Shown piece after piece: positions 1,143-35,489 of a DNA stretch of 64,000 bases. Position 1 is the first letter of the stretch. Each line of letters starts with the position of its first letter. The notes under the pieces are model-generated. The model was not told the origin of the DNA and did not search any database. It worked only from the letters and a program-made list of their open reading frames with translations. This stretch comes from Alphaproteobacteria bacterium GWF2_58_20 (GTDB lineage: Bacteria; Pseudomonadota; Alphaproteobacteria; UBA1247). Location: contig MEMB01000007.1 of the NCBI GenBank assembly GCA_001768735.1, positions 23,612-87,611 of the forward strand. The letters run 5' to 3'. The position numbers and the translations under genes are program-made.

Positions 1143-1795
1143 AATTCCTTGTCTTCAATCTCGCGGTCATCGCTGCTCTGGCCTATCTGGTGATGGCACA
1201 CGGGCCCGGATTTCCGGGGCTGGTGCAAACGGCGCAGGAGGCGGTTGCCGCTGTCCAGCCGTCCATGCCTGCCGGGGAAACGGCGGCCAAAAGGGAAAAC
1301 GATTCCCCCATGCCGGAGCAGGACGCGGAAGGGGAAGCATCCGGTTCCCGCATGGCGCGATTGGAAGAGGCCATGGCGTCTCTTGCCAGAACACAGCAGG
1401 AGCTTGCCGTGGCCATGGAAAAGCTGGCCCGGTTGCCTGAAGCCGCATCCTTTCCTGTTGAAATGCCTGCCCGTGTGGCGGATATGCCTCCCCCTGCCCT
1501 TGCCGGGGCGGACGTGGAAAACCCGGAAACTTCAATGGCTGAATCCTTGCCCGTGGGGTTGGACCTCTCCGGGCCGCGTTCCCTGCTGCCTTCTTCCGCG
1601 CAGCTTTCTCCCCCCGCGCTTCCCATGCTGATGGATGCCTTGCCTGTGTCGCCGGTGGTTGTTGCCGATGACATGGATTTTGGGTTTGCTGACAAGGAGG
1701 ATGCTCCGGGTCTTTCTGTCCGTGATCGGCAGGTGGCGCTGGGCGCGATGGCTGAAGACATGGAAATGCTTTACGCCCGCAAACTTGGGGAGTGA
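1139..1795 (+). CDS. bitopic membrane protein with coiled-coil and acidic low-complexity region
   Basis: N-terminal TM helix (FLVFNLAVIAALAYLVMA), then a coiled-coil-like and Pro/Ala/Glu-rich segment. Start overlaps the previous stop by 4 bp. Confidence 0.4.
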   Translation: MKFLVFNLAVIAALAYLVMAHGPGFPGLVQTAQEAVAAVQPSMPAGETAAKRENDSPMPEQDAEGEASGSRMARLEEAMASLARTQQELAVAMEKLARLPEAASFPVEMPARVADMPPPALAGADVENPETSMAESLPVGLDLSGPRSLLPSSAQLSPPALPMLMDALPVSPVVVADDMDFGFADKEDAPGLSVRDRQVALGAMAEDMEMLYARKLGE

Positions 1796-1801
1796 GGCGG
1801 C

Positions 1802-2783
1802 CATGGCAGGATGGCGCACGCCTGACAGGGTGTCGGTGGGTGTCTCCCTCCTGCTGGGGGGCATCGCCTGTGGCGCTTTGGTCCTGCAGGTTCCATCCCC
1901 TGAAAAAACGATGCCGGACGTGCCTGCAGAAAGGGAAATATTCCGGCCCGCGCCGCCCCTGCTTGCGCAGGAGGGGGTGCAAGCGGACGTGTTGCGCTTG
2001 CCTCCACCGCCGGAACGGAGCTTGCCACCGCCTGATGCTCCATCTGTCCTTTCTCCTGCGGTCTTTCCTGTGAAGGTTGCTGCGCCCCCCTTGCCAAAAG
2101 GGAAGGAGATTGCAAAACGGCGTCCGTCCGTCTTGCCTCCCCAAGAAAAGCCGGCATCCCCGCCTTCCCTGCCTGTCCATTCCCTTCCGCGTCCGGAAAG
2201 GAACATGAGGCCCGATCCGGCCCCTGTTTCACCGCCTGTTCCGGAGATCGACCTGGCCCGGACAGCGGCGCCCGAGGTGGTGTCCATGGCGGCGGAGGGA
2301 CGTGTCCTCCTGCGGTTGCTGGAACAGGATGCGGGGCCGGAGGTGGAGATTGCCTGGCCCGATGATGCTGGCGCGCGTGAACGGCTGTACCAGATGCTGG
2401 CCGGGCGGATGGGCATGCGGTCCGGTCTGCTCGATGTGACCACCGGAATTTTTTATGATGCCAAGGGAAGTGGCCCGCTTGACCTTGACCGTTACAGCCG
2501 GTTTGTCCGCTATCCGGAAGGGGCGGGAATTGTGGGCGAACAGCAAGCCTTGCGCATGGTCCGTGCGCAGGGGGGCGCGGGCATGGCCCAGCCTGTGCGG
2601 GTGTTTCCGCGTGCGGCGGATGCACTCCTGCTGGGGGGGCTTGCCCGTTTGGTGGGGAAAGGTTTCGGGCGGGCGCAGGTCTTGCGTGCCCGTTATCGTT
2701 TTTCACCGGAAGGGGTGCTGGTGGGGGATATTGTGGCTGATGGGCGTTCCGTGCCCGGGAATATCCGCCTCATCCGTCCATAA
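1802..2783 (+). CDS. TonB/TolA-like bitopic protein: TM anchor, long Pro-rich spacer, C-terminal globular domain
   Basis: Internal ATG at 1802 with a GGGGAG-like RBS. TM helix VSVGVSLLLGGIACGALVL. About 150 aa extremely Pro-rich (PPPPERSLPPPDAPS...PASPPSLPVHSLPRPE), then a ~200 aa C-terminal domain. Confidence 0.4.
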
Positions 2784-2836
2784 AACCGCATGAAGGGCCG
2801 GATGGTTTGGCCCGCATGGCCTTGAGGGAGGTTTTG

Positions 2837-3745
2837 ATGTCCTTGTCCAAACATGTGACCATTCTTGGCGTATTGCTGGCGCTTTCTGCACCTGCCCATG
2901 CCCAGCGCACGGCCTTGGTTGTGTTGTCTGGCCCGCAGGAAGAAGCGCTTGCGCGGGCGGAACGCATCCAGGCGGTTTTGCTGGATGAGCGGCCATTTGA
3001 CCAGGTGGATGTGAAACTCGATGTTGAACCGGCGGAGACGGGTGAGGTCCTTGCGGCTTTTCTTTCCGCGCCCGGAGAGTCCGATGATTTTCGCATGGCC
3101 CTTGTGCTGGCACCGGAAGCGGGGCTCTGTCAGGGGGATGATGTTGCGCCAGTGGTTTCGGCGGTTCCCTCCCTTGTGCTGGCACCGGAATGCCTTGTGG
3201 ATCGCATGGCCTTTCCCGCATCGCCCGCGGTGTATGACATGGATCCCAGCGGTCTTTCGCGCGACCTTTCCGGCGATCCGTGGTCGGGCGAACTTTTTGC
3301 TGGCGACATGGCCTTTCTTGCCATTCCTTTTGCGCAGGACATTCTTGCGCCGGAAGTGGAAGGGCTGCTGCTCCAGATGCTGGCTGCGGGCGGCGATGTC
3401 TCTCCGCTGGGCCTTTTGGAGATGTTCCGGTTGGGCCTTTCCGGGGATGGCAGTGATTTTACCCCTGTCCTTTATGCCACCCGCGATCTTGTCGCGCGCA
3501 CGGTGATCCTGTCCGGAAGCCCTGGAATCGGAGAAGATTTCCGGCAACGCAGACAGGTCTGGCCGCAGGTATTGTCCCTGGATGTCTATGCCGCGCCCAG
3601 TCTGGCAGAAGGGGCGGTAGCCCAGCTTCATGGAGGGTACAGGATAGAGCCCCTGCGCCGCGACCATAGTGGCCGCATGGTATATGTCCGTACCTTTTCC
3701 GGCCATTATGGCTGGGTGCGCGTGAGGGATCTTGGGCGTTCCTGA
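2837..3745 (+). CDS. secreted hypothetical protein
   Basis: ATG at 2837 preceded by GGGAGG. Signal peptide ILGVLLALSAPAHAQ. C-terminal segment SH3-like (GRMVYVRTFSGHYGWVRV). Confidence 0.45.
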   Translation: MSLSKHVTILGVLLALSAPAHAQRTALVVLSGPQEEALARAERIQAVLLDERPFDQVDVKLDVEPAETGEVLAAFLSAPGESDDFRMALVLAPEAGLCQGDDVAPVVSAVPSLVLAPECLVDRMAFPASPAVYDMDPSGLSRDLSGDPWSGELFAGDMAFLAIPFAQDILAPEVEGLLLQMLAAGGDVSPLGLLEMFRLGLSGDGSDFTPVLYATRDLVARTVILSGSPGIGEDFRQRRQVWPQVLSLDVYAAPSLAEGAVAQLHGGYRIEPLRRDHSGRMVYVRTFSGHYGWVRVRDLGRS

Positions 3746-3774
3746 CGGGGATTCATAATTCCCTTGTATGAAGG

Positions 3775-3812
3775 TATGAAATGGTCATATGCTGGTTTAT
3801 GACGGTTTCATA
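3775..3812. promoter_or_regulatory. two tandem inverted repeats TATGA-N5-TCATA upstream of the MarR gene; putative MarR operator
   Basis: tatgaAATGGtcata at 3775-3789 and tatgaCGGTTtcata at 3798-3812, 23 bp centre to centre, 20-55 bp upstream of the MarR start. Confidence 0.45.
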
Positions 3813-3831
3813 GCCATGACAGGGGGGAAAG

Positions 3832-4305
3832 ATGCAAGACCTGCTTGGAAGATATATTGGATTTGTGCTGAGCGATGTTGCGCGGTTGCTGAAGCATGAT
3901 TTTGACAGGTATGCCGCAGACCTTGGCGTGACCCGGGCGCAGTTCCGGGTTCTTGTTTGCCTGTGGTTTCAGGACGGGGTGCGGCAAAAGGAACTGGCCG
4001 ACATTCTGGAGATTTCCCCGATGACCCTTGCGCGCCTGCTGGACAGGCTGGAAACCTGGAAATGGGTTGAACGCAGGCCTGATCCTGGTGACCGCAGGGT
4101 GCGGCGGGTTCATCTCGTGGGCGATCATCCTGAATTGCGTGGCAAGATGCTCTTTTTTGCGGAAAACATCCAGGCCAAGGTTTTTGGCGGAATTTCCGAG
4201 ACGGAAAAGGAAAACATGTTTGATGTGCTTCAGCGCATGCGGGCCAATCTGGGAAATCCGGGCCTGATGCCGGACAGCATGTGTGGGGCGCGGCTTAGCG
4301 CCTGA
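3832..4305 (+). CDS. MarR family transcriptional regulator
   Basis: Winged-HTH MarR signature region (RAQFRVLVCLWFQDGVRQKELADILEISPMTLARLLDRLE ... DRRVRRVHLV). 157 aa. Confidence 0.8.
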   Translation: MQDLLGRYIGFVLSDVARLLKHDFDRYAADLGVTRAQFRVLVCLWFQDGVRQKELADILEISPMTLARLLDRLETWKWVERRPDPGDRRVRRVHLVGDHPELRGKMLFFAENIQAKVFGGISETEKENMFDVLQRMRANLGNPGLMPDSMCGARLSA

Positions 4306-5185
4306 GGAAAATGAAATCTCCACCATCATGCCCGGCTGCGGGAATGTTGGCATATTCAGGCTCTTGGCCTGCCGTGTCCATCCTGCCTGTGGCGGAGAGG
4401 TAGAGCTGGGTTCCGGTGAGAGGCCCACGGCCCTGCTGCCCGAGGGTTTCCAGAAGCGCTGAAGCAAAGACGGAATGTCCGCCCCGGCCATCGCTGACAG
4501 GTTCAAGGCCGCCAGAGGTGAGGGCAATGCGGGAGCGCTGGCGCAGTTTCTGCCCCAGGATTCCGGAAATGTCCGCAGGGTCATCTTTCACGGTCCGGGT
4601 CATGGTGCCCGCATAACAGCTATCCGAGATGACCAGGATCTTGCGGGCCGCACTCTGTTCCAGCAGGGCGGTAATGTCTGAAATGGAAATCCAGCTTTCC
4701 GGGGAATCCGCATGGGAATCGCGGGGCAGCCAGTAGCCTCCCCCGTGATCCCGTATGCCATGCCCCGCATAGTAGATGACCAGATTGTCGCTGGCTCCGG
4801 CGCTGGCGGAGAATTTCCGCAAGGCTGTCATCATCTCCTGCCGTCCGGGATCCGTAAGCAGGCGGGTTTCAAATCCATAATCCTTTTCCAGCTGTCGGGC
4901 CACCGCACGCGCATCGTTGCCGGCATTGGCCAGGCGCGGGACAGATGTGTAGGCATCAATGCCAATGGACAGGATGCGGAATGGCCCCAGCTGTTCCGGC
5001 GTCAGCGATGCCGACAGGTCAAAGGCCGGACGGGCGGCAAGGGTTCCATCTTCCCGGCCCGTCTCCCCCGTCTCCTGCCGTCCGCCGCTGCCCATCATGC
5101 CCCCAAGGCTGCCCCACTGGGCGTGCGCTGGCCATGCCACGGCCATCATGAGGAGCAAAAGCGGGACAAGTACGGGCTTTGACAT
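4295..5185 (-). CDS. secreted caspase-like cysteine peptidase (peptidase C14 / orthocaspase)
   Basis: Signal peptide LLLLMMAVAWPAHAQ. Caspase catalytic His (VIYYAGHGIRD) and Cys (ILVISDSCYAGTM) motifs are present. Convergent with MarR, 11 bp overlap. Confidence 0.75.
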   Translation of the reverse strand: MSKPVLVPLLLLMMAVAWPAHAQWGSLGGMMGSGGRQETGETGREDGTLAARPAFDLSASLTPEQLGPFRILSIGIDAYTSVPRLANAGNDARAVARQLEKDYGFETRLLTDPGRQEMMTALRKFSASAGASDNLVIYYAGHGIRDHGGGYWLPRDSHADSPESWISISDITALLEQSAARKILVISDSCYAGTMTRTVKDDPADISGILGQKLRQRSRIALTSGGLEPVSDGRGGHSVFASALLETLGQQGRGPLTGTQLYLSATGRMDTAGQEPEYANIPAAGHDGGDFIFLRR

Positions 5186-5205
5186 GATGCGCTTCCTTTC
5201 CGGCC

Positions 5206-6156
5206 TTATTTGCAGCCCGGTGTCCCCTTGATGTAGTCATTCAGGGTGCATTGTTTCTGGGGCGGCGTGGTTGGCTGGGTGGGCTGCACCGGCGGTGGTG
5301 TCGGTTTGTCCGGCTTGGTTGGCTTGTCGGGTTTTGTGGGTTTTTCGGGCGGGGGCGTGACGGTGGTGGTGCCGTTGTCCTGTCCAGCCTGTGAAACAGT
5401 CACCACATCCACTTCCACCTGCGGGGTCTGGACATAGGTCTGCCCCTGCTGGCTGACCCTGATGGGGGTCTTGGCCTGGCTCATGACGCCAATCCAGGTG
5501 GGGTTGTCGCGCGCGCCCTGTTCGTGCAGCGCGCCGAGGAAGTTTATGGTATAGCGGCCACCATTGGTATCGTCGCCCCAGGAGTATTCACCGGGGCTGG
5601 AACCGGAGGCGGCAATGAAGCCCTTGTAACCCAGGAACAGGGTACGGTAGCTGGAGGCCTTGGGCTGGCTGGCCCGCGGAATGGCCCGGTTGCGGCCCTC
5701 ATCGACAAAACTGTTGCAGGAATCGGACGTGGCGATGACGAGGCGCGCGCCCTTTGTCCGCAGCTTTGCCAGAATGTCGGAAAAATCCATGGGCTGGTCC
5801 TTGATGTACATCATGGGCCATTTGGTGGGGGTTTGCTTGGTGCGGTACCCGTGCCCGGAATAGTAGAAAAACAAGACATCGTCCTTGCCTGGACTGGCAT
5901 CGGCAATGGCGCGGGTGATGCCGGCGTTGGTCATCTGGCTTCCCACCAGCTCATTGATGTTGAGGGTCATGCCGGTGGCCTGCGCGATGTTGCGCAGTTC
6001 ATCCTTGATGTTGCCGGCATCAATAGCCACCGAAGTTCCAATGGAAGAGTCACTGGTGTCGGCGATGACGATGGCGTGCAGGCTGGCGGCGTGTGACATG
6101 CCGGACAGGCACAGGGCTACAAGCGCGGAAAGGAGGGGGCGAAGATGTCTGGTCAT
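5206..6156 (-). CDS. secreted caspase-like cysteine peptidase (C14) with C-terminal Pro/Thr-rich linker
   Basis: Signal peptide ALVALCLSGMSHAAS. His motif FFYYSGHGYRT and Cys motif LVIATSDSCNSFVD. C-terminal KPTKPDKPTKPDKPTPPPVQPTQPTTPP repeats. Confidence 0.75.
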   Translation of the reverse strand: MTRHLRPLLSALVALCLSGMSHAASLHAIVIADTSDSSIGTSVAIDAGNIKDELRNIAQATGMTLNINELVGSQMTNAGITRAIADASPGKDDVLFFYYSGHGYRTKQTPTKWPMMYIKDQPMDFSDILAKLRTKGARLVIATSDSCNSFVDEGRNRAIPRASQPKASSYRTLFLGYKGFIAASGSSPGEYSWGDDTNGGRYTINFLGALHEQGARDNPTWIGVMSQAKTPIRVSQQGQTYVQTPQVEVDVVTVSQAGQDNGTTTVTPPPEKPTKPDKPTKPDKPTPPPVQPTQPTTPPQKQCTLNDYIKGTPGCK

Positions 6157-6168
6157 GTTTAAAACCTG

Positions 6169-6660
6169 TCAGTTCTGGGGGAAAAGTTCATCAAGAAGGG
6201 ATTTCATGGTATCTGCGGCAGGATCAAAATCCTCGATGATCGAGCGGTCTTTGTCTTCAAAACGCCATAGGGCGCAGCCGGGCGCGACAAGGATGGAAAA
6301 GCTTTCCGCATTCCGCGTGAGGCGAAAGCCATATGTGGGCAGGAAAGGGCAGCGTTTGGAAGCGTCGAGGACATAGCTTGTTTCCGAAGATGCCATGAAG
6401 GCAAGCCGGTGGGCCTGTTCCGTGGAAAGGATGGGGCCGGCCTGCAAGACGGTGTGTTCCCCAATTTTCTGTGGGGCATTTTCGTCCATTTCGGCAGATA
6501 TCCTGAAACTTTCTATCCGGTCGGGCGCTTGCAGGATGCCGGAAATTTCCGGGCCAAGCAGCTTTGCGATGCTTGGCGAAAGGGCCGATGGCGCGCCCGC
6601 GCATCCCGGGAGCAGCATGCAGGAAACGAAAAGGCAGCAGAGGGAGGCATGTTTTTTCAT
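6169..6660 (-). CDS. lipoprotein, unknown function
   Basis: Start MKKHASLCCLFVSCMLLPGCAG, a lipobox-type signal. Within the same-strand gene string. Confidence 0.5.
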   Translation of the reverse strand: MKKHASLCCLFVSCMLLPGCAGAPSALSPSIAKLLGPEISGILQAPDRIESFRISAEMDENAPQKIGEHTVLQAGPILSTEQAHRLAFMASSETSYVLDASKRCPFLPTYGFRLTRNAESFSILVAPGCALWRFEDKDRSIIEDFDPAADTMKSLLDELFPQN

Positions 6661-6675
6661 GGGAGCATGAACCAC

Positions 6676-7266
6676 TTAACGGAATTTGATGCCATCGCCG
6701 CCCCGTGTTCCGGTGGCAGCGGGGGAAGCCTGCGGACGGCCCAGATTGGTGATTTCCACGCGGCGGTTGACGCCGGAGGCCGGATTTTCTGGATCCTTGA
6801 GTTTTTCGGATCCCCAGCCGACTGTGGTCAGGCGTTCGGGATCCATGTCAAACGTTTCCACAAGATAGGTCTTGACCGATATGGCGCGCGCCAGCGAGAG
6901 CCGCTTGTTCAGATCGGCCGGGCCTGTGGCGTCGGTGTGGCCGGCGATTTCGATTTTGGCGTTCGCAAGGGTTTCCGAGACCAGTGCCATTCCCAGCTCG
7001 CCCAGCTGGATGGTGGCATCCGGTGACAGTTCGGCCGAGCCGATGCGGAACCGGATGTCGAGATCAATCGCCTGCCGGATGTCCTGTCCGGGCCGGTTGA
7101 TGGGAGCGAGACTGCGGATGATGGTGTTGAGGTCGGCCACGCCCGGCTGGACATTGCGTGGGGTGGTGTCCGCCGGTGGGGTGCGGGTTTGCGTCAGGAA
7201 GCCTTGCGCGTGGGCCGCCGGGCTGGCCAGCAGGCACATCAGGGAAAAGGCAATCATGCGTTTCAT
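6676..7266 (-). CDS. OmpA-family peptidoglycan-binding protein
   Basis: Signal peptide MKRMIAFSLMCLLASPAAHAQG. OmpA C-terminal-like signature (FRIGSAELSP ... IEIAGHTDATGPADLNKRLSLARAISVKTYL ... NRRVEI). An alternative start at 7293 would give a 4-bp overlap with the upstream gene. Confidence 0.75.
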   Translation of the reverse strand: MKRMIAFSLMCLLASPAAHAQGFLTQTRTPPADTTPRNVQPGVADLNTIIRSLAPINRPGQDIRQAIDLDIRFRIGSAELSPDATIQLGELGMALVSETLANAKIEIAGHTDATGPADLNKRLSLARAISVKTYLVETFDMDPERLTTVGWGSEKLKDPENPASGVNRRVEITNLGRPQASPAATGTRGGDGIKFR

Positions 7267-13104: not shown

Positions 13105-15539
13105 GGGTCCGGGATTTTTTCCTTTCCGCAATGTCCTGGGGATTGCTTTGCCTTATCCTGGTGCTGGCCACGGGGTGGTTTGTGCTGGCGCGTTTCACCA
13201 GGGACATTCCCGATTATCGCCAGCTTGTAGGGTACCAGCTTCCGGTGGTTACCCGGGTACATGCCGGGGATGGCCGACTCATGGTGTCCTTTGCCAAGGA
13301 AGACCGGGCCTTTGTGCCGATTTCCGCCATTCCGCCGCTGGTACGGCAGGCCTTTATTTCCGCCGAGGACAAGAATTTCTATCACCATGCGGGCGTGGAT
13401 CCGACAGGAATCCTGCGGGCGGTGGCCACCAACCTGAAGCACTTGGGCCAGGCGCGGCGTCTGGTGGGGGCTTCCACCATTACCCAGCAGGTGGCCAAGA
13501 ACTTTCTCCTGACCAGCGAAGTTTCGGTGGAGCGAAAGGTCAAGGAAGCCATTCTGGCTTTCCGTATCGAGCAGGCGCTTTCCAAGGAAACCATCCTCGA
13601 GCTTTATCTCAACAAGATTTATCTCGGGGCGGGGTCTTATGGCGTGGCAGCGGCAGCGCTGGACTATTTCGACAAGTCGCTGGATGAACTGACCATTGCC
13701 GAAATGGCCTATCTGGCGGGGTTGCCCAAGGCACCCAACAACTACAATCCTGTCCGTAACCATGATGCCGCTGTCATCCGCCGCAATTATGTGGTTGACC
13801 GCATGCGCGAGGATGGGGCGATCAGCACGGAAGCGGCAGAGGAAGCCAAGGTCCAGCCGCTGGGCGTGAAGCCACGCAAGGGGGCGGATACCGTGGAAGC
13901 GGGCTATTTCCTGGAGGAGGTCCGGCGCGAGCTGATGGATGCCTATGGGGAATATGGCCTTTATTCCGGAGGACTGTCCGTACGGACCACGCTGGATTCC
14001 CGGCTGCAGGATGTGGCCGATACGTCCCTCGCATGGGGACTTGAGGAATATGACCGTCGGCGCGGGACATGGCGCGGACCTGTGGCGCGTCTGGCTAGCC
14101 TCTATGATTGGCAGCCTGCGCTGGCCCAGATGGTGGTGCCGCCAGGAGGGGAACGTTTTGCGCTGGCCGTGGTTCTGGAAGTGCGTGCCGACCATGCGTC
14201 CATCGGCCTGGTGGACGGAAAAACCGGAAACATTCCGCTGGAGGAGGCCAAATGGGCGCGCCGCCTGAACCGGGATGGAACGCGCGGGCCTGTTCCTTCC
14301 AGCATGGACGATGTGCTTTCGCCCGGGGATATCGTGTATGTGCGGGCTGTGGAAGGCAAGCCGGAACAGTTTTCCCTGCGGCAGGTTCCACGGGTGGAGG
14401 GGGCGATTGTGGCACTGGATCCACATACCGGGCGCGTCCTTGCCATGAGCGGCGGCTGGAGCTACCGGGTCAGCCAGTACAACCGCGCCATCCAGGCCAG
14501 CCGGCAAACAGGGTCTTCCTTCAAGCCGTTTGTATTTCTGGCTGCGCTGGATGCCGGGTTGACGCCTGCAACCCTGGTGCTGGATGCGCCGCTGGAAATG
14601 GATCAGGGGCCCGGGCTGCCCATGTGGGCGCCGAAGAATTACCATGATGAATACCTGGGGGCCGTTCCCTTGCGCGTTGGTCTTGAAAAATCGCGCAACC
14701 TGATGACCGTGCGGCTGGCCCAATATACCGGCATGGAGAAGATTGTCGATTACGCCAAGCGTTTTGGCGTGGTGCGGAACATGCCGCCCCATTATGCCAT
14801 GGCCCTGGGCGCGGGGGAGAGCACGGCGCTGCGCATGGCCAGCGCTTATGCCGTGTTTGTCAATGGCGGCAAGCAGATTGTTCCCACCCTGATTGACCGG
14901 GTGCAGGACCGGAGCGGCCATACACTTTACCGGCATGACCAGCGGCCCTGCCCGAATTGTGACGATGTGTCGTGGGGGCGGCAGAATGCTCCGGAAATTC
15001 CCGACATGCGGGCGCAGATCGCCGACCCGGTGTCGGCCTACCAGATTGTTTCCATGCTGCAGGGCGTGGTGCAGCGCGGTACGGCCGCTTCGGTGGGCTG
15101 GAAGCTGAAACGTCCGCTGGCGGGCAAGACCGGCACCACGAATGACAGCCGCGATGCCTGGTTTGTCGGTTTTTCTCCCGATCTCGTCGTGGCCACCTAT
15201 ATCGGTTATGACGCCCCGGAATCCCTTGGCAAGCAGGAAACCGGTTCTTCGGTAGCCGTGCCGGTGTTTGCGCGGTTCATGGAGGCAGCGTTGGCGGATA
15301 CGCCAGCCACGCCCTTCCGGGTGCCGCCGGGGGTGCGCATGGTCAAGATCAACCATGATACGGGGGAACTGGCCAGGCCGGGAGACAAGACGGTGATCTG
15401 GGAAGCCTTCCGCAGCGGAACCGAGCCTGGCGCCGATTCGCCACAGGGTGTTCTTGGGGAAGAAGGATTCATGGTGCCGCAAAAAGGCCATCCCACCATG
15501 CGTCCGGATGCAACCACCGGTACGGGCGGGCTTTACTGA
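13101..15539 (+). CDS. mrcA: penicillin-binding protein 1A (bifunctional transglycosylase/transpeptidase)
   Basis: Glycosyltransferase motifs (ISAEDKNFYHHAGVD, ITQQVAKN) and transpeptidase motifs (SSFKP, SRN, KTGTT). 4-bp overlap with amiC. Confidence 0.9.
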   Translation: MRVRDFFLSAMSWGLLCLILVLATGWFVLARFTRDIPDYRQLVGYQLPVVTRVHAGDGRLMVSFAKEDRAFVPISAIPPLVRQAFISAEDKNFYHHAGVDPTGILRAVATNLKHLGQARRLVGASTITQQVAKNFLLTSEVSVERKVKEAILAFRIEQALSKETILELYLNKIYLGAGSYGVAAAALDYFDKSLDELTIAEMAYLAGLPKAPNNYNPVRNHDAAVIRRNYVVDRMREDGAISTEAAEEAKVQPLGVKPRKGADTVEAGYFLEEVRRELMDAYGEYGLYSGGLSVRTTLDSRLQDVADTSLAWGLEEYDRRRGTWRGPVARLASLYDWQPALAQMVVPPGGERFALAVVLEVRADHASIGLVDGKTGNIPLEEAKWARRLNRDGTRGPVPSSMDDVLSPGDIVYVRAVEGKPEQFSLRQVPRVEGAIVALDPHTGRVLAMSGGWSYRVSQYNRAIQASRQTGSSFKPFVFLAALDAGLTPATLVLDAPLEMDQGPGLPMWAPKNYHDEYLGAVPLRVGLEKSRNLMTVRLAQYTGMEKIVDYAKRFGVVRNMPPHYAMALGAGESTALRMASAYAVFVNGGKQIVPTLIDRVQDRSGHTLYRHDQRPCPNCDDVSWGRQNAPEIPDMRAQIADPVSAYQIVSMLQGVVQRGTAASVGWKLKRPLAGKTGTTNDSRDAWFVGFSPDLVVATYIGYDAPESLGKQETGSSVAVPVFARFMEAALADTPATPFRVPPGVRMVKINHDTGELARPGDKTVIWEAFRSGTEPGADSPQGVLGEEGFMVPQKGHPTMRPDATTGTGGLY

Positions 15540-15677
15540 AAATTTCCCTTTTCCTGACGGGAAATGCCGGCAATGTTTTCCGGCATGATTCGACGGGCCG
15601 CGCGTTTTTCCGGACGTCCTTTCTTTGGCGGCAATGTCAAGAAAAAATTTTCAAAAAAAATGCTTGCAGCGGGCATC

Positions 15678-15730
15678 ATGGCATATATGATGTGTATATC
15701 AACTCTTTTGCCATACAACATATAGTAGGT
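15678..15730. promoter_or_regulatory. two NrdR-box-like AT palindromes upstream of nrdD (weak)
   Basis: atggcATATATgatgt (15678-15693) and acaacATATAgtaggt (15715-15730) resemble the ACACwATATATwGTGT NrdR box. Spacing of 37 bp is atypical. Confidence 0.25.
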
Positions 15731-15848
15731 CGTGCAAGCGACGGAAAACTGGAAACCCTTGTTTCCTTATGGTGAATCCCAGACGTACGGGATGCCTTGG
15801 TTCCAGTTCTTGTATGTCCGGACAGACGAAGAAGGAGAATCAGGGGTC

Positions 15849-17903
15849 ATGGAAACAGGCGAGCAGGCACTTCTTTTCCAGTTGCCGGAAACCCCGCTTC
15901 CCGAGCTTGTTGTCAAGCGTGACGGAACCAAGGTTGTTTTTGATGAAAGCCGAATCCTTGCCACAATCCGCAAGGCGGCTTTTGAGACCCGTGAATTTGG
16001 CGAGGAAGATGCCAACATGCTGGCCGCGCAGGTGGTCAAGGTGGTGCGGCATCGGTTTACCGGACGCCAGCCATCGGTTGAGCAGGTGCAGGATGTTGTC
16101 GAGCAGTGCCTGATTTCCGCCAACCACATGGAAACCGCGCGCGCCTTCATCGTTTACCGCGAGCAGCACAGCCGCCTGCGCGGTGAGCGCAAGGTGCATG
16201 TCGATGCGGTGGCATCGGTCAATGAATATCTCGAGAGGATCGACTGGCGGGTGAACGCCAACGCCAACCAGGGCTATTCCCTTGGCGGGATGATTCTCAA
16301 CGTGGCGGGCAAGGTGACAGCCAATTACTGGCTCAGCCATGTCTATCCGCCCTATGTGGGCGAGGCGCACCGCAATGGCGATGTGCATATTCATGATCTC
16401 GACATGCTGTCGGGCTATTGCGCGGGCTGGTCGTTGCGCAACCTTCTGAATGAAGGCCTCAATGGCGTGCCCGGAAAGATCGAGGCCAAGCCACCCAGCC
16501 ACCTGTCAAGCGCGCTGGGGCAGGCCGTCAATTTCCTGGGGTCGCTGCAGAACGAATGGGCGGGCGCGCAGGCCTTCAGTTCGTTCGACACCTATCTTGC
16601 GCCCTTCGTCCGCAAGGACAAGATGTCCTATGAGGAAGTGAAGCAGAATATCCAGGTGTTCATCTACAACATGAACAGCCCGTCGCGCTGGGGCACGCAG
16701 ACACCGTTCACCAATCTCACCCTTGACTGGACCTGTCCCGAGGACGTGAAAAACCAGGTTCCGCTCATCGGCGGCAAGGAAATGCCGTTCACCTATGGTG
16801 AATTGCAGGCCGAGATGGACATGATCAACCGCGCCTACATCGAGGTGATGACTGCGGGCGACGCCAAGGGCCGCATTTTTACCTTTCCCATTCCCACTTA
16901 CAACATCACGCCCGATTTTACCTGGGATTCGGAAAATGCGAACCTGCTGTTCGAGATGACGGCGAAATACGGGCTGCCCTATTTCCAGAATTTCCTCAAC
17001 TCCGACCTCGCGCCCAACATGGTGCGCTCCATGTGCTGCCGGTTGCAGCTGGACCTGCGCGAGCTGCTCAAGCGCGGCAACGGCCTCTTTGGTTCCGCCG
17101 AGCAGACAGGCTCCGTGGGTGTGGTCACCATCAACTGCGCGCGTCTTGGCTACCTCTATTCCGGCAATCTTGACGGCATGCTGGAACGTCTGGGCGAACT
17201 GATGGACCTGGGCAAGGTCAGCCTCGAGATCAAGCGCAAGACCATCCAGCGCGGAATTGACATCGGCCTGTACCCGTTTACCAAGCGGTATCTTGGCACG
17301 TTGCGCAACCATTTCTCGACCATTGGCATCAATGGCGTCAACGAGATGATCCGCAACTTCACCAAGGATGCCTATGACATCGCCACGGTTGATGGCAAGG
17401 CCCTGGCCGAGCGTGTTCTGGATTTCTGCCGCGAGCGGCTGGTGGCCTATCAGGAAGAAACCGGCCATCTCTACAATCTTGAAGCGACGCCGGCGGAAGG
17501 CACCACCTACCGTTTTGCGCGCGAAGACAAGAAGCGTTATCCCGACATTCTGCAGGCCGGTGAGCCGGATGCGCCCTATTACACCAATTCTTCCCAGCTT
17601 CCGGCGGGATTCGGGGATGATCCGATCGCTGCGCTCGACCATCAGGAAACCCTGCAGCGCAAATATACGGGGGGCACCGTGTTCCACATGTTCCTGACCG
17701 AGCGGGTGACGGATTCTTCCGCCTGCAAGGCGCTGGTGCGCCGGGTACTGGAGCGTTACCGGATTCCCTACCTCACCATCACCCCCACCTTTTCAGTTTG
17801 TCCGCGCCACGGCTACATTGCGGGCGAACACAAATACTGCCCGAAATGCGATGCCGAGCTGATTGCACGCAAGCGGGCGGACATTGCAGCAGCGAGTTCA
17901 TGA
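15849..17903 (+). CDS. nrdD: anaerobic ribonucleoside-triphosphate reductase large protein (class III RNR) lacking the C-terminal glycyl-radical motif
   Basis: ATG at 15849 with a GAAGGAGAA RBS; the track ORF runs from 15732. N-terminal ATP-cone (VVKRDGTKVVFDESRIL). The ORF ends right after a Cys/His zinc ribbon (CPRHG ... CPKCD), with no RVxGY motif. Confidence 0.85.
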   Translation: METGEQALLFQLPETPLPELVVKRDGTKVVFDESRILATIRKAAFETREFGEEDANMLAAQVVKVVRHRFTGRQPSVEQVQDVVEQCLISANHMETARAFIVYREQHSRLRGERKVHVDAVASVNEYLERIDWRVNANANQGYSLGGMILNVAGKVTANYWLSHVYPPYVGEAHRNGDVHIHDLDMLSGYCAGWSLRNLLNEGLNGVPGKIEAKPPSHLSSALGQAVNFLGSLQNEWAGAQAFSSFDTYLAPFVRKDKMSYEEVKQNIQVFIYNMNSPSRWGTQTPFTNLTLDWTCPEDVKNQVPLIGGKEMPFTYGELQAEMDMINRAYIEVMTAGDAKGRIFTFPIPTYNITPDFTWDSENANLLFEMTAKYGLPYFQNFLNSDLAPNMVRSMCCRLQLDLRELLKRGNGLFGSAEQTGSVGVVTINCARLGYLYSGNLDGMLERLGELMDLGKVSLEIKRKTIQRGIDIGLYPFTKRYLGTLRNHFSTIGINGVNEMIRNFTKDAYDIATVDGKALAERVLDFCRERLVAYQEETGHLYNLEATPAEGTTYRFAREDKKRYPDILQAGEPDAPYYTNSSQLPAGFGDDPIAALDHQETLQRKYTGGTVFHMFLTERVTDSSACKALVRRVLERYRIPYLTITPTFSVCPRHGYIAGEHKYCPKCDAELIARKRADIAAASS

Positions 17904-17922
17904 CATTCAAGGGAGAAAAAAC

Positions 17923-18108
17923 ATGACACCACCCAACCAGAATGGCGCGGTCGAGATTATCCTGAAGGACGAGGAACGCCAGCCCTGTGAAATCTGGACG
18001 CGTGTGATGGGTTATCATCGCCCGGTGTCGGAATTCAATATCGGCAAGAAGGCGGAGTTCCGCGAGCGCGTGGCCTTCCGCGAGAGCCGTTGTGAAACCA
18101 GCGCCTGA
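17923..18108 (+). CDS. stand-alone glycyl-radical domain protein (NrdD C-terminal module encoded separately)
   Basis: Own RBS AAGGGAG 8 nt upstream of ATG 17923. Contains RVMGYHRPVSEFNIGKKAEF, the glycyl-radical loop of class III RNRs. 61 aa. Confidence 0.65.
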   Translation: MTPPNQNGAVEIILKDEERQPCEIWTRVMGYHRPVSEFNIGKKAEFRERVAFRESRCETSA

Positions 18109-18763
18109 ACTGCTGGTTGGCGGGCTCGTTCCGTTTACCACCATTGATTTTCCGGGGCGGCTGGCCGCTGTGGTGTTCTGCCAGGGGTGTCCGTGGCAGT
18201 GCGATTACTGTTATAACCGCCACCTTTGGCAGGCTTCGGGGGAGAACATGATCCCCTGGGCTGAGGTTCTGGCTTTTCTGGAAAAGCGGCAGGGCATGCT
18301 GGATGGTGTGGTTTTCAGCGGGGGCGAGGCCAGTGTCCAGCCGGGTTTGCCAGAAGCGCTGAAGCAGGTGCGGGCGCTGGGATATGCCACGGCCCTGCAT
18401 ACCAATGGCGTGGTGCCGGAGCGGCTTGAAACCCTGTTGCCCCTGCTGGACTGGGTGGGGCTCGACATCAAGGCGCCCTTTGACCTTTATGAAAAAGTGA
18501 CAAAGATTCCCGGCTCCGGACAGAAAGCCCGCCGGGCGCTGGATATCCTGTTGCGTTGGGGCGGGGCGTTTGAAACCCGAACCACGGTGGATCTCGCCCT
18601 GCTTTCGGCGCAAGACCTTGAAGCCATGGCCCGCGACCTGTCGGAAAGCGGCGTGAAAGCGTGGGCGTTGCAACCCTGCCGCCGGGATGATGGAGTGGCG
18701 GTGCTGGATGAAGGCCTGCTCGCAGGGGCACGTGCCTTCATGCCGGATCTTGTTATCCGCTAA
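18092..18763 (+). CDS. nrdG: anaerobic ribonucleotide reductase activating protein (radical SAM)
   Basis: CQGCPWQCDYC radical-SAM cluster motif. GTG start that overlaps the preceding small gene by 17 nt. Confidence 0.8.
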   Translation: MKPAPELLVGGLVPFTTIDFPGRLAAVVFCQGCPWQCDYCYNRHLWQASGENMIPWAEVLAFLEKRQGMLDGVVFSGGEASVQPGLPEALKQVRALGYATALHTNGVVPERLETLLPLLDWVGLDIKAPFDLYEKVTKIPGSGQKARRALDILLRWGGAFETRTTVDLALLSAQDLEAMARDLSESGVKAWALQPCRRDDGVAVLDEGLLAGARAFMPDLVIR

Positions 18764-18776
18764 GGGGTGATGGCGC

Positions 18777-19616
18777 ATGCCCGAGCTTCCGGAAGTTGAA
18801 ACCATCAGGCGGGGGCTTGTGGCGGCCCTTTGTGGCCAACGCATCCTGTCGGCTGAGTTGCGGCGGCATGATTTCCGGCGCAAGGCGCAGGCCGATATGG
18901 AGGGTCATCTTTCGGGACGTGGGCTTTCCGGCATTTCCCGGCGCGGCAAATACATGATCTTCCATTTTGAAGACGGAGGCGAAGCCCTGCTGGCGCATCT
19001 GGGGATGTCAGGGCGCTTTTTGTATTTTCCGCCGGGTGCCGGTGGTGGAGATGGGCGGCACGACCATCTTGTCCTGCATATGTCCGGCGGGGGGCGTGCC
19101 GTATTTTGTGATCCGCGCCGGTTCGGTTTTGTGGAACTTGTTCCGGAAGAAAAATTGCCAACGCATCCGGCGCTGGCGGTTCTCGGGATGGAGCCATTGT
19201 CCGGGGATTTTACGCCGCAGGCGCTGCTGCGGGTTCTCAAGGGGCGGACGTCCATCAAGGCGGCGCTGCTGGACCAGGGGCGCATTGCGGGCCTTGGCAA
19301 CATCTATGTGTGCGAGGCCCTTTTTGAGGCAGGGATTTCCCCGTTCCGCATGGCGGGAAGCCTCGGCAAGGCGGAAGGGGACAAACTGCATGCGGCGATT
19401 CGGGCGATTCTGGAGAGGGCGATTGCCGCCGGAGGCAGTTCTCTGCGGGATTATGTGCATGCGGATGGGAGTGTCGGACGCTTTCAGGAGCATTTTTCGG
19501 TTTATGGACGTACCGGGCAGCCGTGTCCCCGTTGCCATTTGCGGCGCGGAGGGGTAGTTTCACGAAAGGTCCAGTCGGGACGCTCGAGTTTTTTCTGCCC
19601 CTCATGCCAGGAGTGA
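18777..19616 (+). CDS. mutM: formamidopyrimidine-DNA glycosylase
   Basis: N-terminal MPELPEVE catalytic Pro2/Glu3 motif and a C-terminal zinc finger (CPRCHLRRG ... FCPSCQ). Confidence 0.9.
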   Translation: MPELPEVETIRRGLVAALCGQRILSAELRRHDFRRKAQADMEGHLSGRGLSGISRRGKYMIFHFEDGGEALLAHLGMSGRFLYFPPGAGGGDGRHDHLVLHMSGGGRAVFCDPRRFGFVELVPEEKLPTHPALAVLGMEPLSGDFTPQALLRVLKGRTSIKAALLDQGRIAGLGNIYVCEALFEAGISPFRMAGSLGKAEGDKLHAAIRAILERAIAAGGSSLRDYVHADGSVGRFQEHFSVYGRTGQPCPRCHLRRGGVVSRKVQSGRSSFFCPSCQE

Positions 19617-19624
19617 AACGGAAG

Positions 19625-19996
19625 ATGCGCTTTGTTGTTCTTGTTGCTTGCGGAATTTTGTTGTCCCTGTCACCGGTTAGGGCTGGTGAGACGGCTTACC
19701 TGTCCACCATGGAAGATGTTCCCCTTTTGCCGGGACTTTTTGAAGTTCCGGAAGAAGGCATGGTGTTTGACCAGCCGGAAGGGCGGATTGTTCTGGCTGT
19801 CGCACGCTGCGAATCGTGCGGGGAAGAGGTGGCATCCTATTATGGGGGGCTTTTGCCAGCCCTTGGATGGCAGACAGAGGATGCTTCGGGCGGGCTTGTG
19901 TTTCTGCGGGATGGAGAGCGCCTTGTCATTGATGTGCAGGCCGCCGTGGATGGGGGCAGTGTGGTTTCCTTTACCTTGGCGCCGGGGGGCATGTGA
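19625..19996 (+). CDS. secreted hypothetical protein
   Basis: Signal peptide MRFVVLVACGILLSLSPVRAGE. 4-bp overlap with the downstream gene. Confidence 0.45.
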   Translation: MRFVVLVACGILLSLSPVRAGETAYLSTMEDVPLLPGLFEVPEEGMVFDQPEGRIVLAVARCESCGEEVASYYGGLLPALGWQTEDASGGLVFLRDGERLVIDVQAAVDGGSVVSFTLAPGGM

Positions 19997-20772
19997 TGTC
20001 TGAAGAAATGGTGGTTCTGGAAAAGCATGGCCGGGTTGGTTCTTTGGAAATGAGCCGGACGCAGCAGGGTGGACAGGTTTGTCTCGAAATGTTGCAGGGG
20101 CTGGTGAAGGCTTTTGCCGATTGCGATGCCGATCCGGATATTGGGGCCATTTTGCTGACCGGTTCAGAAAAGGCGTTTGCCACCGGTCCTGATGCGGCAG
20201 AAATGCTGGCGGTGGATTTTGCGTCCGGGCTTGTGCGGGATGAGGTCTCTGACCTATGGCAGGCGCTTGCGTCACATCGCAAGCCCTTGGTGGCCGCAGT
20301 TTCTGGCTATGCCATGGGGGCTGGATGCAGCCTTGTCCTTCTTTGTGATGTTGTGGTGGCTTCTGAAACCGCGCGTTTCGGGCAGCCGGATTTGACCATG
20401 GGATCATTGCCTGCGGTGGGAACCCTTAATCGTCTGGCGCGAATCGTTGGGCGAATCAAGGCCATGGACATGGCCTTGACGGGCCGGATCATGACGGCGG
20501 ATGAAGCGGAACTGGCGGGTCTTGTGAGCCGGATTGTCCCGGCGCCGGATCTGGCCGATGAGGCCCGGGAACTGGCGGAACGCATCGCCTCCATGTCGCT
20601 TCCCCTGGTTCTCATGGCCAAGGAATCCATTGACAAGGCTTCGGAAACCGGCGTTTTGGAAGGGCAGGTTCATGAACGTCGCCTGATCGAGGAATCCCGT
20701 GTCCTTGATGACCACCGGGAAGGCCTTTCTGCGGTTTTGGAAAATCGGCAGCCCGCTTTCCAGAATAAGTGA
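19993..20772 (+). CDS. enoyl-CoA hydratase/isomerase (crotonase) family protein
   Basis: Crotonase fold motifs (AAVSGYAMGAGCSLVLLCDVVVASETARFGQPD). Confidence 0.8.
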   Translation: MMSEEMVVLEKHGRVGSLEMSRTQQGGQVCLEMLQGLVKAFADCDADPDIGAILLTGSEKAFATGPDAAEMLAVDFASGLVRDEVSDLWQALASHRKPLVAAVSGYAMGAGCSLVLLCDVVVASETARFGQPDLTMGSLPAVGTLNRLARIVGRIKAMDMALTGRIMTADEAELAGLVSRIVPAPDLADEARELAERIASMSLPLVLMAKESIDKASETGVLEGQVHERRLIEESRVLDDHREGLSAVLENRQPAFQNK

Positions 20773-20773
20773 C

Positions 20774-20803
20774 TTGACTTGCGCGGCAACCACCCTGTAT
20801 AAG
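20774..20803 (+). promoter_or_regulatory. sigma70-type promoter for rpsT
   Basis: TTGACT (20774-20779), 18 nt spacer, TATAAG (20798-20803), about 70 nt upstream of the rpsT ATG. Confidence 0.5.
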
Positions 20804-20873
20804 CCCCCCCTGTCGCCGCCTTTCAATGTGTGCGGCGGAGTTTTTGGATTCATCTCAGCTATCAAGGGTCAAC

Positions 20874-21137
20874 ATGGCTCAACATCAGTCAGCAAAGAAG
20901 CGGGCACGCCGCACCATCCGGGCAACGGGCGTCAACAAGGCGCGTGTGAGTCGTATCCGTACCTATGTGAAAAAGGTCGAGGAAGCCATCACCAAGGGTG
21001 ATAGCGCCGCCGCCAAGGCAGCCCTGCAGGTTGCCCAGCCGGAAATGCATCGTGGCGCCCTCAAGGGTGTCTTGCATCCCAATACGGTTGGACGCAAGCT
21101 TTCCCGTCTTGTGGCCCGCATCAAGAAGCTGGGCTAA
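20874..21137 (+). CDS. rpsT: 30S ribosomal protein S20
   Basis: [39 protein letters not shown] is a canonical S20 N-terminus. Confidence 0.9.
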
Positions 21138-21249
21138 GGCGTCTTTTCGCCAAAGTGGCGTTTTGCGGAATCCGCGGCACACGCTTGCGTGTGTGCCGCG
21201 ATACGCATTTAAGTTATTGATAAAAAAATCAAAAAATCACTTGCCTGCC

Positions 21250-21258
21250 TGTGGATAA
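21250..21258. promoter_or_regulatory. consensus DnaA box (TGTGGATAA = complement of TTATCCACA) in the dnaA leader
   Basis: Perfect 9-mer 60 nt upstream of the dnaA ATG. An AT-rich stretch TTATTGATAAAAAAATCAAAAAATCAC lies just upstream. Confidence 0.6.
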
Positions 21259-21317
21259 CTGTTTTATGACCTTTCTTGTCTCAATTTTTTCGGGCAGGTG
21301 TTTAGGGGGTCTCTTTC

Positions 21318-22703
21318 ATGCAGGAAACCATCAGGGCGGAATGGCGGCAGGTCTGTGACCTCATGCGCAGGGACATTGGTGAAAGTGATGTCCGCTTTTG
21401 GCTTGAGCCGTTGGAAATTGCCCCCGTTGAGAATCAAGATGGCCACCTGAAAGTTGTTCTGCTGGCACCCAATACGTTTGTGCGTGATTCGGTGGACCAG
21501 AAGCATGGAGACCAGCTGGGACGTATCTGGCGCAACATCAATCCGGAGGTGGTGCGCGTGGCGTTTGGGGTGCGCGATGCAGGTGCCAGCCCGGATGAGC
21601 TTGGCAAGAACAAGAAAAAAGCCCAGCCTGCCGGGAAGAAGGGTTCCGCATTGGCGGATCAGAATGATGGTCTGGAATCCTTCGGGATTCCGGTGGATCC
21701 CCGATATACTTTTGCCAATTTTGTGGTTGGGAAACCCAACGAATTTGCCGTTTCTGCCGCCCGGCGCGTTGCCGAATCGCCCGAGATCAAGTTCAATCCC
21801 CTGTTTCTTTACAGCGGCGTCGGCCTTGGCAAGACGCATCTCATGCATGCCATTGCCGATTCGGTTCGTCAGCAGACTCCAGAACGTCGGGTGCTTTACA
21901 TTTCCGCCGAGAAGTTCATGTACCACTACGTGCATGCGCTCCGCTCCAACAGCGCGCCGGATTTTCGGGCCAAGATGCGCAGCGTGGACGTTCTGCTGGT
22001 GGATGACATCCAGTTCATCTGCGGCAAGGAAGCCACACAGGAAGAATTTTTCAACACCTTCAACGATCTGGTGTCGCGCAACCGGCAGATCGTCCTTTCG
22101 GCCGACCGCAGCCCGTCCGATCTCGACCAGCTCCAGGAGCGTGTCAAATCCCGCCTCAACTGGGGCCTTGTCGCCGACATCCACAAGACCACCTATGAAC
22201 TGCGACTGGGTATCCTTGCCGCCAAGGCGGATGCGCGCAGCGTTTTTGTGCCGCAGGATGTCATGGAATTTCTGGCCCACCGGATTGATTCCAACGTCCG
22301 CGAGCTGGAAGGGGCCCTCAATCGCATCATCCATTACGCTGACCTCATCGGACAGCCGATAGCCCTCTCCACCTGTGAGGAGGTTTTGCGCGACCTGCTG
22401 CGGTCCAGCCAGAGGATTCTGACCATTGAGGATATCCAGCGCAAGGTGGCGGAGCATTACAGCATCCGGATTGCCGACCTGTCTTCAGACCGGCGTGCGC
22501 GGGCAGTGGCCCGGCCCCGGCAGGTTGCGATGTTCCTGTGCAAGGCGCTCACCTCCCTCTCCCTGCCCGAGATCGGGCGCAAGTTTGGCGGCCGTGACCA
22601 CACCACGGTCCTGCATGCGGTTCGCAAGGTTGAGGAGTTGATGGAGCTGGATCAAGTCATGGCCTCGGATGTCGCCATGCTGCGTCGAACCCTTTCAGAC
22701 TGA
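21318..22703 (+). CDS. dnaA: chromosomal replication initiator protein DnaA
   Basis: AAA+ Walker A ([14 protein letters not shown]), Walker B (LLVDDIQF) and C-terminal DNA-binding domain ([11 protein letters not shown]). Confidence 0.95.

Positions 22704-35413: not shown

Positions 35414-35489
<76 letters not shown>

Follow-up and report, generated by a model that had tools for sequence, protein, structure and literature searches.

Can the radical glycine of an anaerobic ribonucleotide reductase (RNR) be supplied by a gene of its own? This question is raised by the nrd operon in a 64,000-nucleotide (nt) stretch of DNA from Alphaproteobacteria bacterium GWF2_58_20 (contig MEMB01000007.1, positions 23,612 to 87,611; the whole stretch is called the window below). 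The large-subunit gene nrdD stops here before the glycyl-radical loop, the loop is encoded by a separate gene for a protein of 61 amino acids (aa), and the activase gene nrdG follows. Glycyl-radical enzymes are described as single chains with a radical domain that swings out to the activase and back in to work. We interpret the locus as a naturally split class III (anaerobic) RNR operon, in the order nrdD core, small radical subunit and nrdG, in which the 61 aa protein would act in trans, and we put the probability of this reading at about 80%.

Architecture of the operon and its protein families

The features of the operon are listed in Table 1. The large open reading frame (ORF) ends in ...TFSVCPRHGYIAGEHKYCPKCDAELIARKRADIAAASS with the stop codon TGA at 17901–17903, 17 residues past the last cysteine of the zinc ribbon. 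Its product closes with the basic tail AELIARKRADIAAASS, and the glycyl-radical loop is absent from this chain. An earlier interpretation, made from the letters and ORFs of the window (the sequence-only reading), had the nrdD ORF stop immediately after its zinc ribbon; the ribbon does precede the stop, and the 17 residues between them do away with the 'immediately'. The likely start of nrdD is ATG 15849, because it is preceded by a ribosome-binding site, AAGGAGA, at 15831–15837 and because public assemblies call the large protein as 684 aa. The first possible start in the ORF list is GTG 15732, and the longer ORF that it opens is probably an over-extension.

The small ORF begins at ATG 17923 in a frame different from that of nrdD, ends with a stop codon at 18106–18108 and encodes MTPPNQNGAVEIILKDEERQPCEIWTRVMGYHRPVSEFNIGKKAEFRERVAFRESRCETSA. 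RVMGY occupies residues 27–31 of this protein and the codon of Gly30 lies at 18010–18012. The start of nrdG overlaps the end of the small gene by 17 nt. The sequence-only reading had described a 61 aa ORF in another frame with its own AAGGGAG ribosome-binding site, and an nrdG that overlaps it, and on both counts it was right.

Profile searches divide a single known enzyme over the first two genes. The large protein matches the NCBIfam equivalog model PRK08270 ('ribonucleoside triphosphate reductase') with 1106.2 bits (cut-off 548) and spans its positions 4–658 of 684; the small protein spans positions 649–682. The large protein also scores 473.6 bits against TIGR02487 (cut-off 326), and in Pfam it matches the ATP-cone and positions 2–529 of 562 of NRDD (PF13597; 572.9 bits). 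Positions 531–562 of NRDD are matched by the small protein (33.6 bits; gathering score 26.2), for which the Pfam scan returned NRDD only and no match to Gly_radical. The third protein is recognized by TIGR02495, NrdG2, with 185.9 bits (cut-off 131.15). The radical-glycine motif RVxGY is not found on the chain that carries the NrdD barrel; only the operon as a whole has RVMGY.

Alignment to enzymes of solved structure, which the sequence-only reading had proposed as a check, places the break at the same point. The large protein aligns to the NrdD proteins of Prevotella copri, Thermotoga maritima and phage T4 as far as the second CxxC of the zinc ribbon, and in the phmmer alignment its finger loop RSMCCRLQLD (SMCCRL) pairs with ASCCRL of T. 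maritima NrdD. The profile of the small protein aligns to residues 617–646 of T. maritima NrdD, MRIVGYLVPVSAFNKERREIEYPRRQFY (MRIVGYLVPVSAFN...), a stretch that comprises the radical loop and tail, so that the loop is indeed what normally forms the NrdD C-terminus. A PDB search with a fused C-terminal construct gave no match. The canonical glycyl-radical domain, residues 676–739 in the P. copri enzyme, consists of a zinc site, a buried Gly loop and a surface tail (PMC11226230). Judged from the alignments, the cut falls inside this domain, leaving the zinc ribbon on the core and detaching the Gly loop and tail. The suggestion that the glycyl-radical domain is encoded separately is thus correct for the Gly loop and tail half and incorrect for the zinc-ribbon half.

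The zinc ribbon reads CPRH-x9-CPKC, with CxxH in place of the first CxxC, as had been noticed before. This feature is no mark of the split: among relatives, whether fused or split, the histidine (C-P-x-H-G-Y) hardly varies. In T. maritima NrdD, Zn is bound by CxxxHx6CxxC, a motif present in 87 of 1502 NrdD sequences (PMC4493059). The CxxH is a family-wide Cys3His trait unrelated to the split, and zinc binding is predicted here. For the small protein alone, AlphaFold2 returned no predicted fold (a pLDDT confidence score of 55.5 and a pTM score of 0.14), weak evidence that is consistent with folding on a partner.

Table 1. Coordinates of the nrd operon and of the single Rfam match at gathering score in the window.
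Feature	Position	Strand	Content
nrdD core (large) subunit, 684 aa	15849..17903	+	ATP-cone, class III RNR barrel, Cys3His zinc ribbon
Zinc-ribbon codons, CPRH-x9-CPKC (Cys3His site)	17799..17849	+	Read directly from the sequence
Intergenic spacer, 19 nt, with Shine–Dalgarno AAGGGAG (17909–17915)	17904..17922	+	
Small subunit gene, 61 aa	17923..18108	+	Conserved head LKDEERQPCEIW, TRVMGY loop, C-terminal tail
nrdG activase (radical SAM), 223 codons, GTG start	18092..18763	+	TIGR02495 NrdG2; Pfam Radical_SAM and Fer4_12
tRNA gene	35414–35486		Sole Rfam hit of the window (gathering score)

Conservation of the split and its relation to fused NrdD

The junction was checked in three assemblies. Over 17800–18120 the DNA is identical in an ENA metagenome assembly, in the NCBI metagenome-assembled genome (MAG) GCA_003485165.1 of a Rhodospirillaceae bacterium (contig DNAY01000005.1) and in a Logan assembly. 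A contig from a second sample encodes the same 61 aa protein after the same 19 nt gap in DNA that is not identical.

The same arrangement recurs widely. When one genome per species was scanned, relatives of the small protein turned up in at least 583 genomes. The best 80 bacterial loci were inspected together with the window, giving 81 loci, and in 69 of them, the window included, nrdD lies immediately upstream. All 69 are split. The distance from the nrdD stop to the start of the small gene varies from −41 to 221 nt with a median of 30 nt. The small gene starts with ATG at 80 of the 81 loci and is preceded at 77 by a Shine–Dalgarno-like motif of at least 4 nt, 3–12 nt upstream. It is followed by nrdG at 68 loci, and at 67 loci the large nrdD is linked to both the small gene and nrdG. 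The split is also present in finished genomes: in Rhodospirillum centenum SW (CP000613) the three proteins have 675, 59 and 217 aa, and on the Ralstonia solanacearum megaplasmid they are annotated as three coding sequences, with an ATGA overlap. A tblastn search with the small protein matched 162 plasmid or chromid records, 132 of them from Ralstonia, for which one locus was inspected; the other records, taken as matches only, include Paracoccus denitrificans, P. versutus, Cupriavidus and Bradyrhizobium. Magnetospirillum is also among the matches to the small protein.

As a protein in its own right, the small subunit is abundant and uniform in size. At E ≤ 1e-3, 3214 clusters of a 90%-identity collection were matched, and the best 120 are all 53–76 aa long; in a 50%-identity collection there were 1859 representatives, and 149 of the best 150 have 53–114 aa. 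An alignment of 24 small proteins contains 23 invariant columns, including those of L-x-D-E-E-R-Q-x-C-E-x-W-T-R-V-M-G-Y-x-R-P. With these invariant columns and thousands of stand-alone homologues, the small protein is under strong conservation and purifying selection. Public annotation calls such ORFs 'hypothetical protein' or gives them the name of the large subunit, and no NCBIfam or PHROG model names the protein.

Fused members of the PRK08270 family, found in Geobacteraceae, Propionibacteriaceae, Streptomyces, Legionellales and others, show where the chain was cut. In 85 fused relatives the linker from the last CxxC to W-T-R-V-M-G-Y has 6–50 residues. Short forms read CPTCGAE-CEVWTRVMGY, and a long form is exemplified by P0121, CPCCDQEILARRKQAPVLEGEESIGDDAGLLSDEQRQICEVWTRVMGY. 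The long forms retain both 'E-x-L-A-x-K', which is the end of split large subunits, and 'L-x-D-E-x-R-Q-x-C-E', which is the head of small subunits. In the window the 17 aa tail of the large protein and the 24 aa head of the small protein add up to the equivalent of a 41-residue linker. Because the long fused forms hold both flanking motifs and the tail and head here match their length, the split is a fission mid-way in a long-linker nrdD variant.

The small gene without nrdD and the surroundings of the operon

The small subunit gene is autonomous and mobile, as it occurs in orphan bacterial loci, in a prophage-like copy and in orphan viral contigs. At 11–12 of the 80 bacterial loci it lacks an nrdD within 4 kb. 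A second copy (P0014, 62 aa, 76% identical; loci L081–L083, 6001–6189) is encoded in the same MAG as the operon of the window, GCA_003485165.1, on contig DNAY01000010.1. Its neighbours encode GapR, a helix–turn–helix protein, a DNA ligase and a weak match to a phage P22-family Pfam entry, and it overlaps a DNA methylase gene; from this gene content the block looks prophage-like. IMG/VR holds 279 viral contigs with a homologue of the small protein, and the best 80 (L087–L166) were inspected, often with flanks of 4 kb on each side. Seventy of these have neither nrdD nor nrdG in the available flanks, and the remaining ten carry a phage nrdD that is split in the same manner. Neighbours of the viral orphans include tail fibres, radical-SAM (S-adenosylmethionine) genes and an endolysin-like ORF, the last of which was assigned by eye from its sequence. 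In PHROGs the small protein is phrog_4132, of 'unknown function'. Neither the radical motif TRVMGY nor the tail next to it varies among cellular and phage copies.

Several of these loci have particular neighbours. In Magnetospirillum fulvum DSM 13234 (L008) the orphan gene (3956–4153) is immediately followed by a class I (aerobic) RNR pair (4217–7251), an nrdA-like gene of 640 aa and an nrdB of 376 aa, with no nrdD within 4 kb. In L005 the orphan gene (3998–4180) adjoins a gene (4217–4753) for rubrerythrin, an oxidative-stress protein of anaerobes. One further orphan bacterial locus has the look of a prophage. A Betaproteobacteria MAG (L003) contains decayed remnants of nrdD (3223–3322) and a truncated nrdG (6124–6402) around an intact small gene (3992–4177). 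On the gut phage contig L143, two radical-SAM genes (336 and 432 aa; Radical_SAM and Fer4_12; 1737–3991) stand directly upstream of an orphan small gene at about 3956–4141, and this pair may be a phage-specific activase. The metagenomic protein P0361 (526 aa) has the NrdD radical-loop motif embedded at 306–349 of a larger chain, flanked by an N-terminal Nudix-like motif (by eye) and a nucleoside 2-deoxyribosyltransferase domain (Pfam).

Several of the ten split phage nrdD genes are in addition interrupted. Four large subunits contain in-frame inserts of about 120–310 aa (L088 994–3918, L089 1410–3794, L093 1413–3911 and L135 323–3943); one insert sits between the two finger-loop cysteines (SMC|...THN|CRL) and L135 carries two. 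Group I introns were considered and rejected for these genes, which give no Rfam matches and are continuous ORFs with boundaries of the Cys...His-Asn/Cys type. By these intein-like boundaries the inserts are inteins.

No further nrdD, full-length or otherwise, and no further copy of the small gene was found in the window. A promoter and terminator scan of 15450–19700 gave no + strand signal in the vicinity of the operon that exceeded background, and the Rfam scan of the window, with the tRNA gene of Table 1 as its sole match, returned no intron model. Upstream of nrdD an AT-rich stretch, 15650–15730, stands out from an otherwise GC-rich region, and two imperfect repeats within it, CATATATGATGTGTAT and ACAACATATAGTAG, are spaced by about 32 bp. 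NrdR boxes were considered at this position and dropped, as the consensus ACACWATATATWGTGT matches nowhere in the window at three or fewer mismatches. Downstream, at about 18777–22100, follow mutM/fpg, an enoyl-CoA hydratase gene, rpsT and dnaA (gene calls of L167). This puts the nrd operon about 3 kb from the probable region of the replication origin.

Proposed mechanism, alternatives and implications

In single-chain NrdD the Gly loop and tail are the last ∼35 residues. We propose that in the split enzyme the 684 aa protein would provide the ATP-cone, the catalytic barrel with the finger-loop cysteines and the zinc ribbon, while the 61 aa protein would provide in trans the radical-glycine loop (Gly30 in TRVMGY) and the C-terminal tail. 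The overlap of nrdG with the small gene suggests that their translation is coupled, and NrdG would use SAM to abstract the hydrogen of Gly30. The Gly loop would be inserted in the barrel of the large subunit, facing the finger-loop cysteine, as in the fused enzymes. The lost covalent linker may be replaced by a docking element composed of two conserved stretches, an acidic one at the head of the small protein (L-x-D-E-E-R-Q-P-C-E) and a basic one at the tail of the large protein (E-L-I-A-R-K-R). Since the large protein has no Gly loop, the small protein is expected to be an obligate subunit in this operon and not a spare.

A separate loop may also bear on oxygen damage. When oxygen attacks glycyl-radical enzymes, the chain breaks at the radical glycine (PMC3019208), and damage would therefore be confined to a cheap, replaceable subunit: a hit on the split enzyme would cost only the 61-residue cartridge, which could be re-synthesised or exchanged. 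A wider idea, that the radical loop is a free, exchangeable and horizontally mobile cartridge with which cells re-arm the 684 aa core after oxygen and which phages inject to keep or boost host deoxynucleotide (dNTP) synthesis, is tentative, and we would place it somewhat short of even odds.

The operon shares features with several known systems. Like the single-chain NrdD/NrdG systems of T4, Escherichia coli, T. maritima and P. copri, it belongs to the PRK08270/TIGR02487/NRDD family and has the ATP-cone, the barrel, and the RVxGY loop and tail; with T. maritima NrdD it has in common the CC finger-loop cysteines and the Cys3His zinc site, and here an NrdG2 activase is adjacent. Those enzymes have the zinc site, Gly loop and tail on one chain, whereas the break here separates the zinc ribbon from the Gly loop. 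E. coli GrcA/YfiD and T4 Y06I are likewise small stand-alone radical-glycine proteins, also carried by phages and presumably activated by the activase of the parent enzyme. The comparison with a GrcA/YfiD-like detachable domain, made in the sequence-only reading, is useful as a working analogy and does not extend to homology or to a spare role: the small protein is homologous to the C-terminus of NrdD (Pfam NRDD only), whereas GrcA is homologous to that of pyruvate formate-lyase (PFL), and GrcA rescues a full-length enzyme after oxygen damage, whereas the partner here never had a loop of its own. A review of June 2026 knows spare-part radical proteins only for formate lyases (PMC13450708).

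Division of an RNR chain over two consecutive genes, the products of which must reassemble, has a precedent in the class II NrdJa/NrdJb of Pseudomonas aeruginosa and Thermus phage phiYS40. Their C-terminal piece holds zinc-finger and turnover elements (PMC4520616, PMC9669993). These enzymes belong to another RNR class with adenosylcobalamin as the cofactor, and what is detached from them is a large folded domain that does not carry the radical. Phage nrdD genes with group I introns, inteins or homing endonucleases (T4 sunY/nrdD, Aeromonas phage phiAS4) also come as more than one ORF (PMC3653736). These are spliced or recent breaks, in contrast to the two independently translated genes found here, which are separated by a 19 nt spacer with a ribosome-binding site in an arrangement conserved across phyla. 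In reviews and surveys of RNR diversity, the only split genes to be mentioned are the class II NrdJa/NrdJb and phage genes divided by introns or inteins (PMC9669993, PMC3653736), and RNRdb describes class III RNR as α2 with the glycine in α (PMC2795772). Full-text literature searches found no description of a split class III RNR, and an earlier mention may exist in older papers outside those searches. The genes are visible in thousands of public annotations and specialists may have seen them.

Four other explanations of the locus have to be weighed. One is that a single continuous nrdD was interrupted, either by a mistake in sequencing or assembly or by a mutation that recently turned it into a pseudogene. 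The frame of the small gene is open upstream to 17863, so that one +1 or −2 shift within 17863–17903 would fuse the two ORFs, and fused relatives with a similar linker length exist. With an identical junction in three assemblies, the same architecture in another sample, the split at every nrdD-linked locus, finished genomes included, and a small gene that has its own ATG, Shine–Dalgarno motif and 23 invariant columns, the probability of such an error is negligible. The genes could also be joined by programmed recoding, a frameshift or stop read-through that yields a single-chain NrdD without separate translation of the small ORF. At 19 of the 69 loci the genes are in frame, about 14 of these with a single stop between them, and TGA is the commonest nrdD stop (35 of 69). 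However, the three possible frame relations are found at 19, 24 and 26 loci, the gaps vary as given above and seven loci have ATGA-type overlaps, so that no one mechanism fits the family. The nearly universal ATG with its Shine–Dalgarno-like motif, the orphan bacterial and phage copies, which have no upstream nrdD to join, and the lack of an Rfam element in the region further make recoding very improbable. Given the identical junctions and the conservation of the split in relatives, finished genomes among them, we regard sequencing error, recent pseudogenisation and a family-wide recoding signal as excluded. The two-gene architecture that the sequence-only reading had preferred to a stop-codon or frameshift error, and for which it had named independent assemblies and related genomes as checks, is genuine.

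The two remaining explanations concern the function of the small protein. It might be a pure GrcA-type spare for a full-length NrdD elsewhere, the adjacent truncated nrdD being inactive or otherwise employed. Its orphan and phage-borne copies act like free-standing spares, and GrcA/YfiD and T4 Y06I offer a precedent for PFL (PMC13450708). An idle neighbour is hard to reconcile with a truncated nrdD that is highly conserved, scores far above the cut-off of its equivalog model, retains the ATP-cone, finger-loop cysteines and zinc ribbon and is linked to the small gene and nrdG at 67 of 81 loci; a search of the window, to which it was confined, found no full-length nrdD. We consider a pure spare highly unlikely, if a shade less so than recoding. 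Slightly less improbable again, and still a slim chance, is a role as regulator or decoy, for example by titrating NrdG or obstructing the large subunit, with the phage copies as possible anti-host inhibitors. Small phage mimics of host enzyme parts are often inhibitors, and the prediction for the isolated protein is disorder. Yet TRVMGY and the tail do not vary among cellular and phage copies, although a decoy could do without some residues of the catalytic loop, and the small gene is the operon's only source of a radical glycine.

Some observations weigh against a naturally split RNR as we describe it. We infer from sequence that the two proteins associate and that the radical is formed on Gly30, and charge-complementary docking is read from conserved motifs alone. 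Some read-through may occur at the in-frame loci that have one intervening stop codon. A neighbour-joining tree of split and fused NrdD (139 columns) places 25 fused sequences in the smallest clade that contains all split ones, the largest all-split clade comprises 15 of 67 sequences, and the split may have arisen once or more than once. Fused relatives occur in strict anaerobes and actinomycetes alike, and no clean ecological split backs the oxygen-repair rationale.

The genetics of a naturally split class III RNR are solid: the same split is found in hundreds of bacterial species, and phages also carry the small gene by itself. That the two chains form a complex, that the small protein is the one activated, that charge docks them and that the split helps in oxygen repair are proposals. 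A radical loop that is separate by nature would be a ready-made system for studying how the activase recognizes its substrate, how the loop enters the barrel and what happens after cleavage by oxygen. It bears on how facultative anaerobes and denitrifiers sustain DNA synthesis at oxic–anoxic boundaries, and the orphan copies in phages hint at an auxiliary gene that has escaped recognition. If the mobile radical cartridge is real, it would be the first GrcA-like system outside the formate lyases, and the phage copies (PHROG 4132) would be a new class of phage auxiliary metabolic gene.

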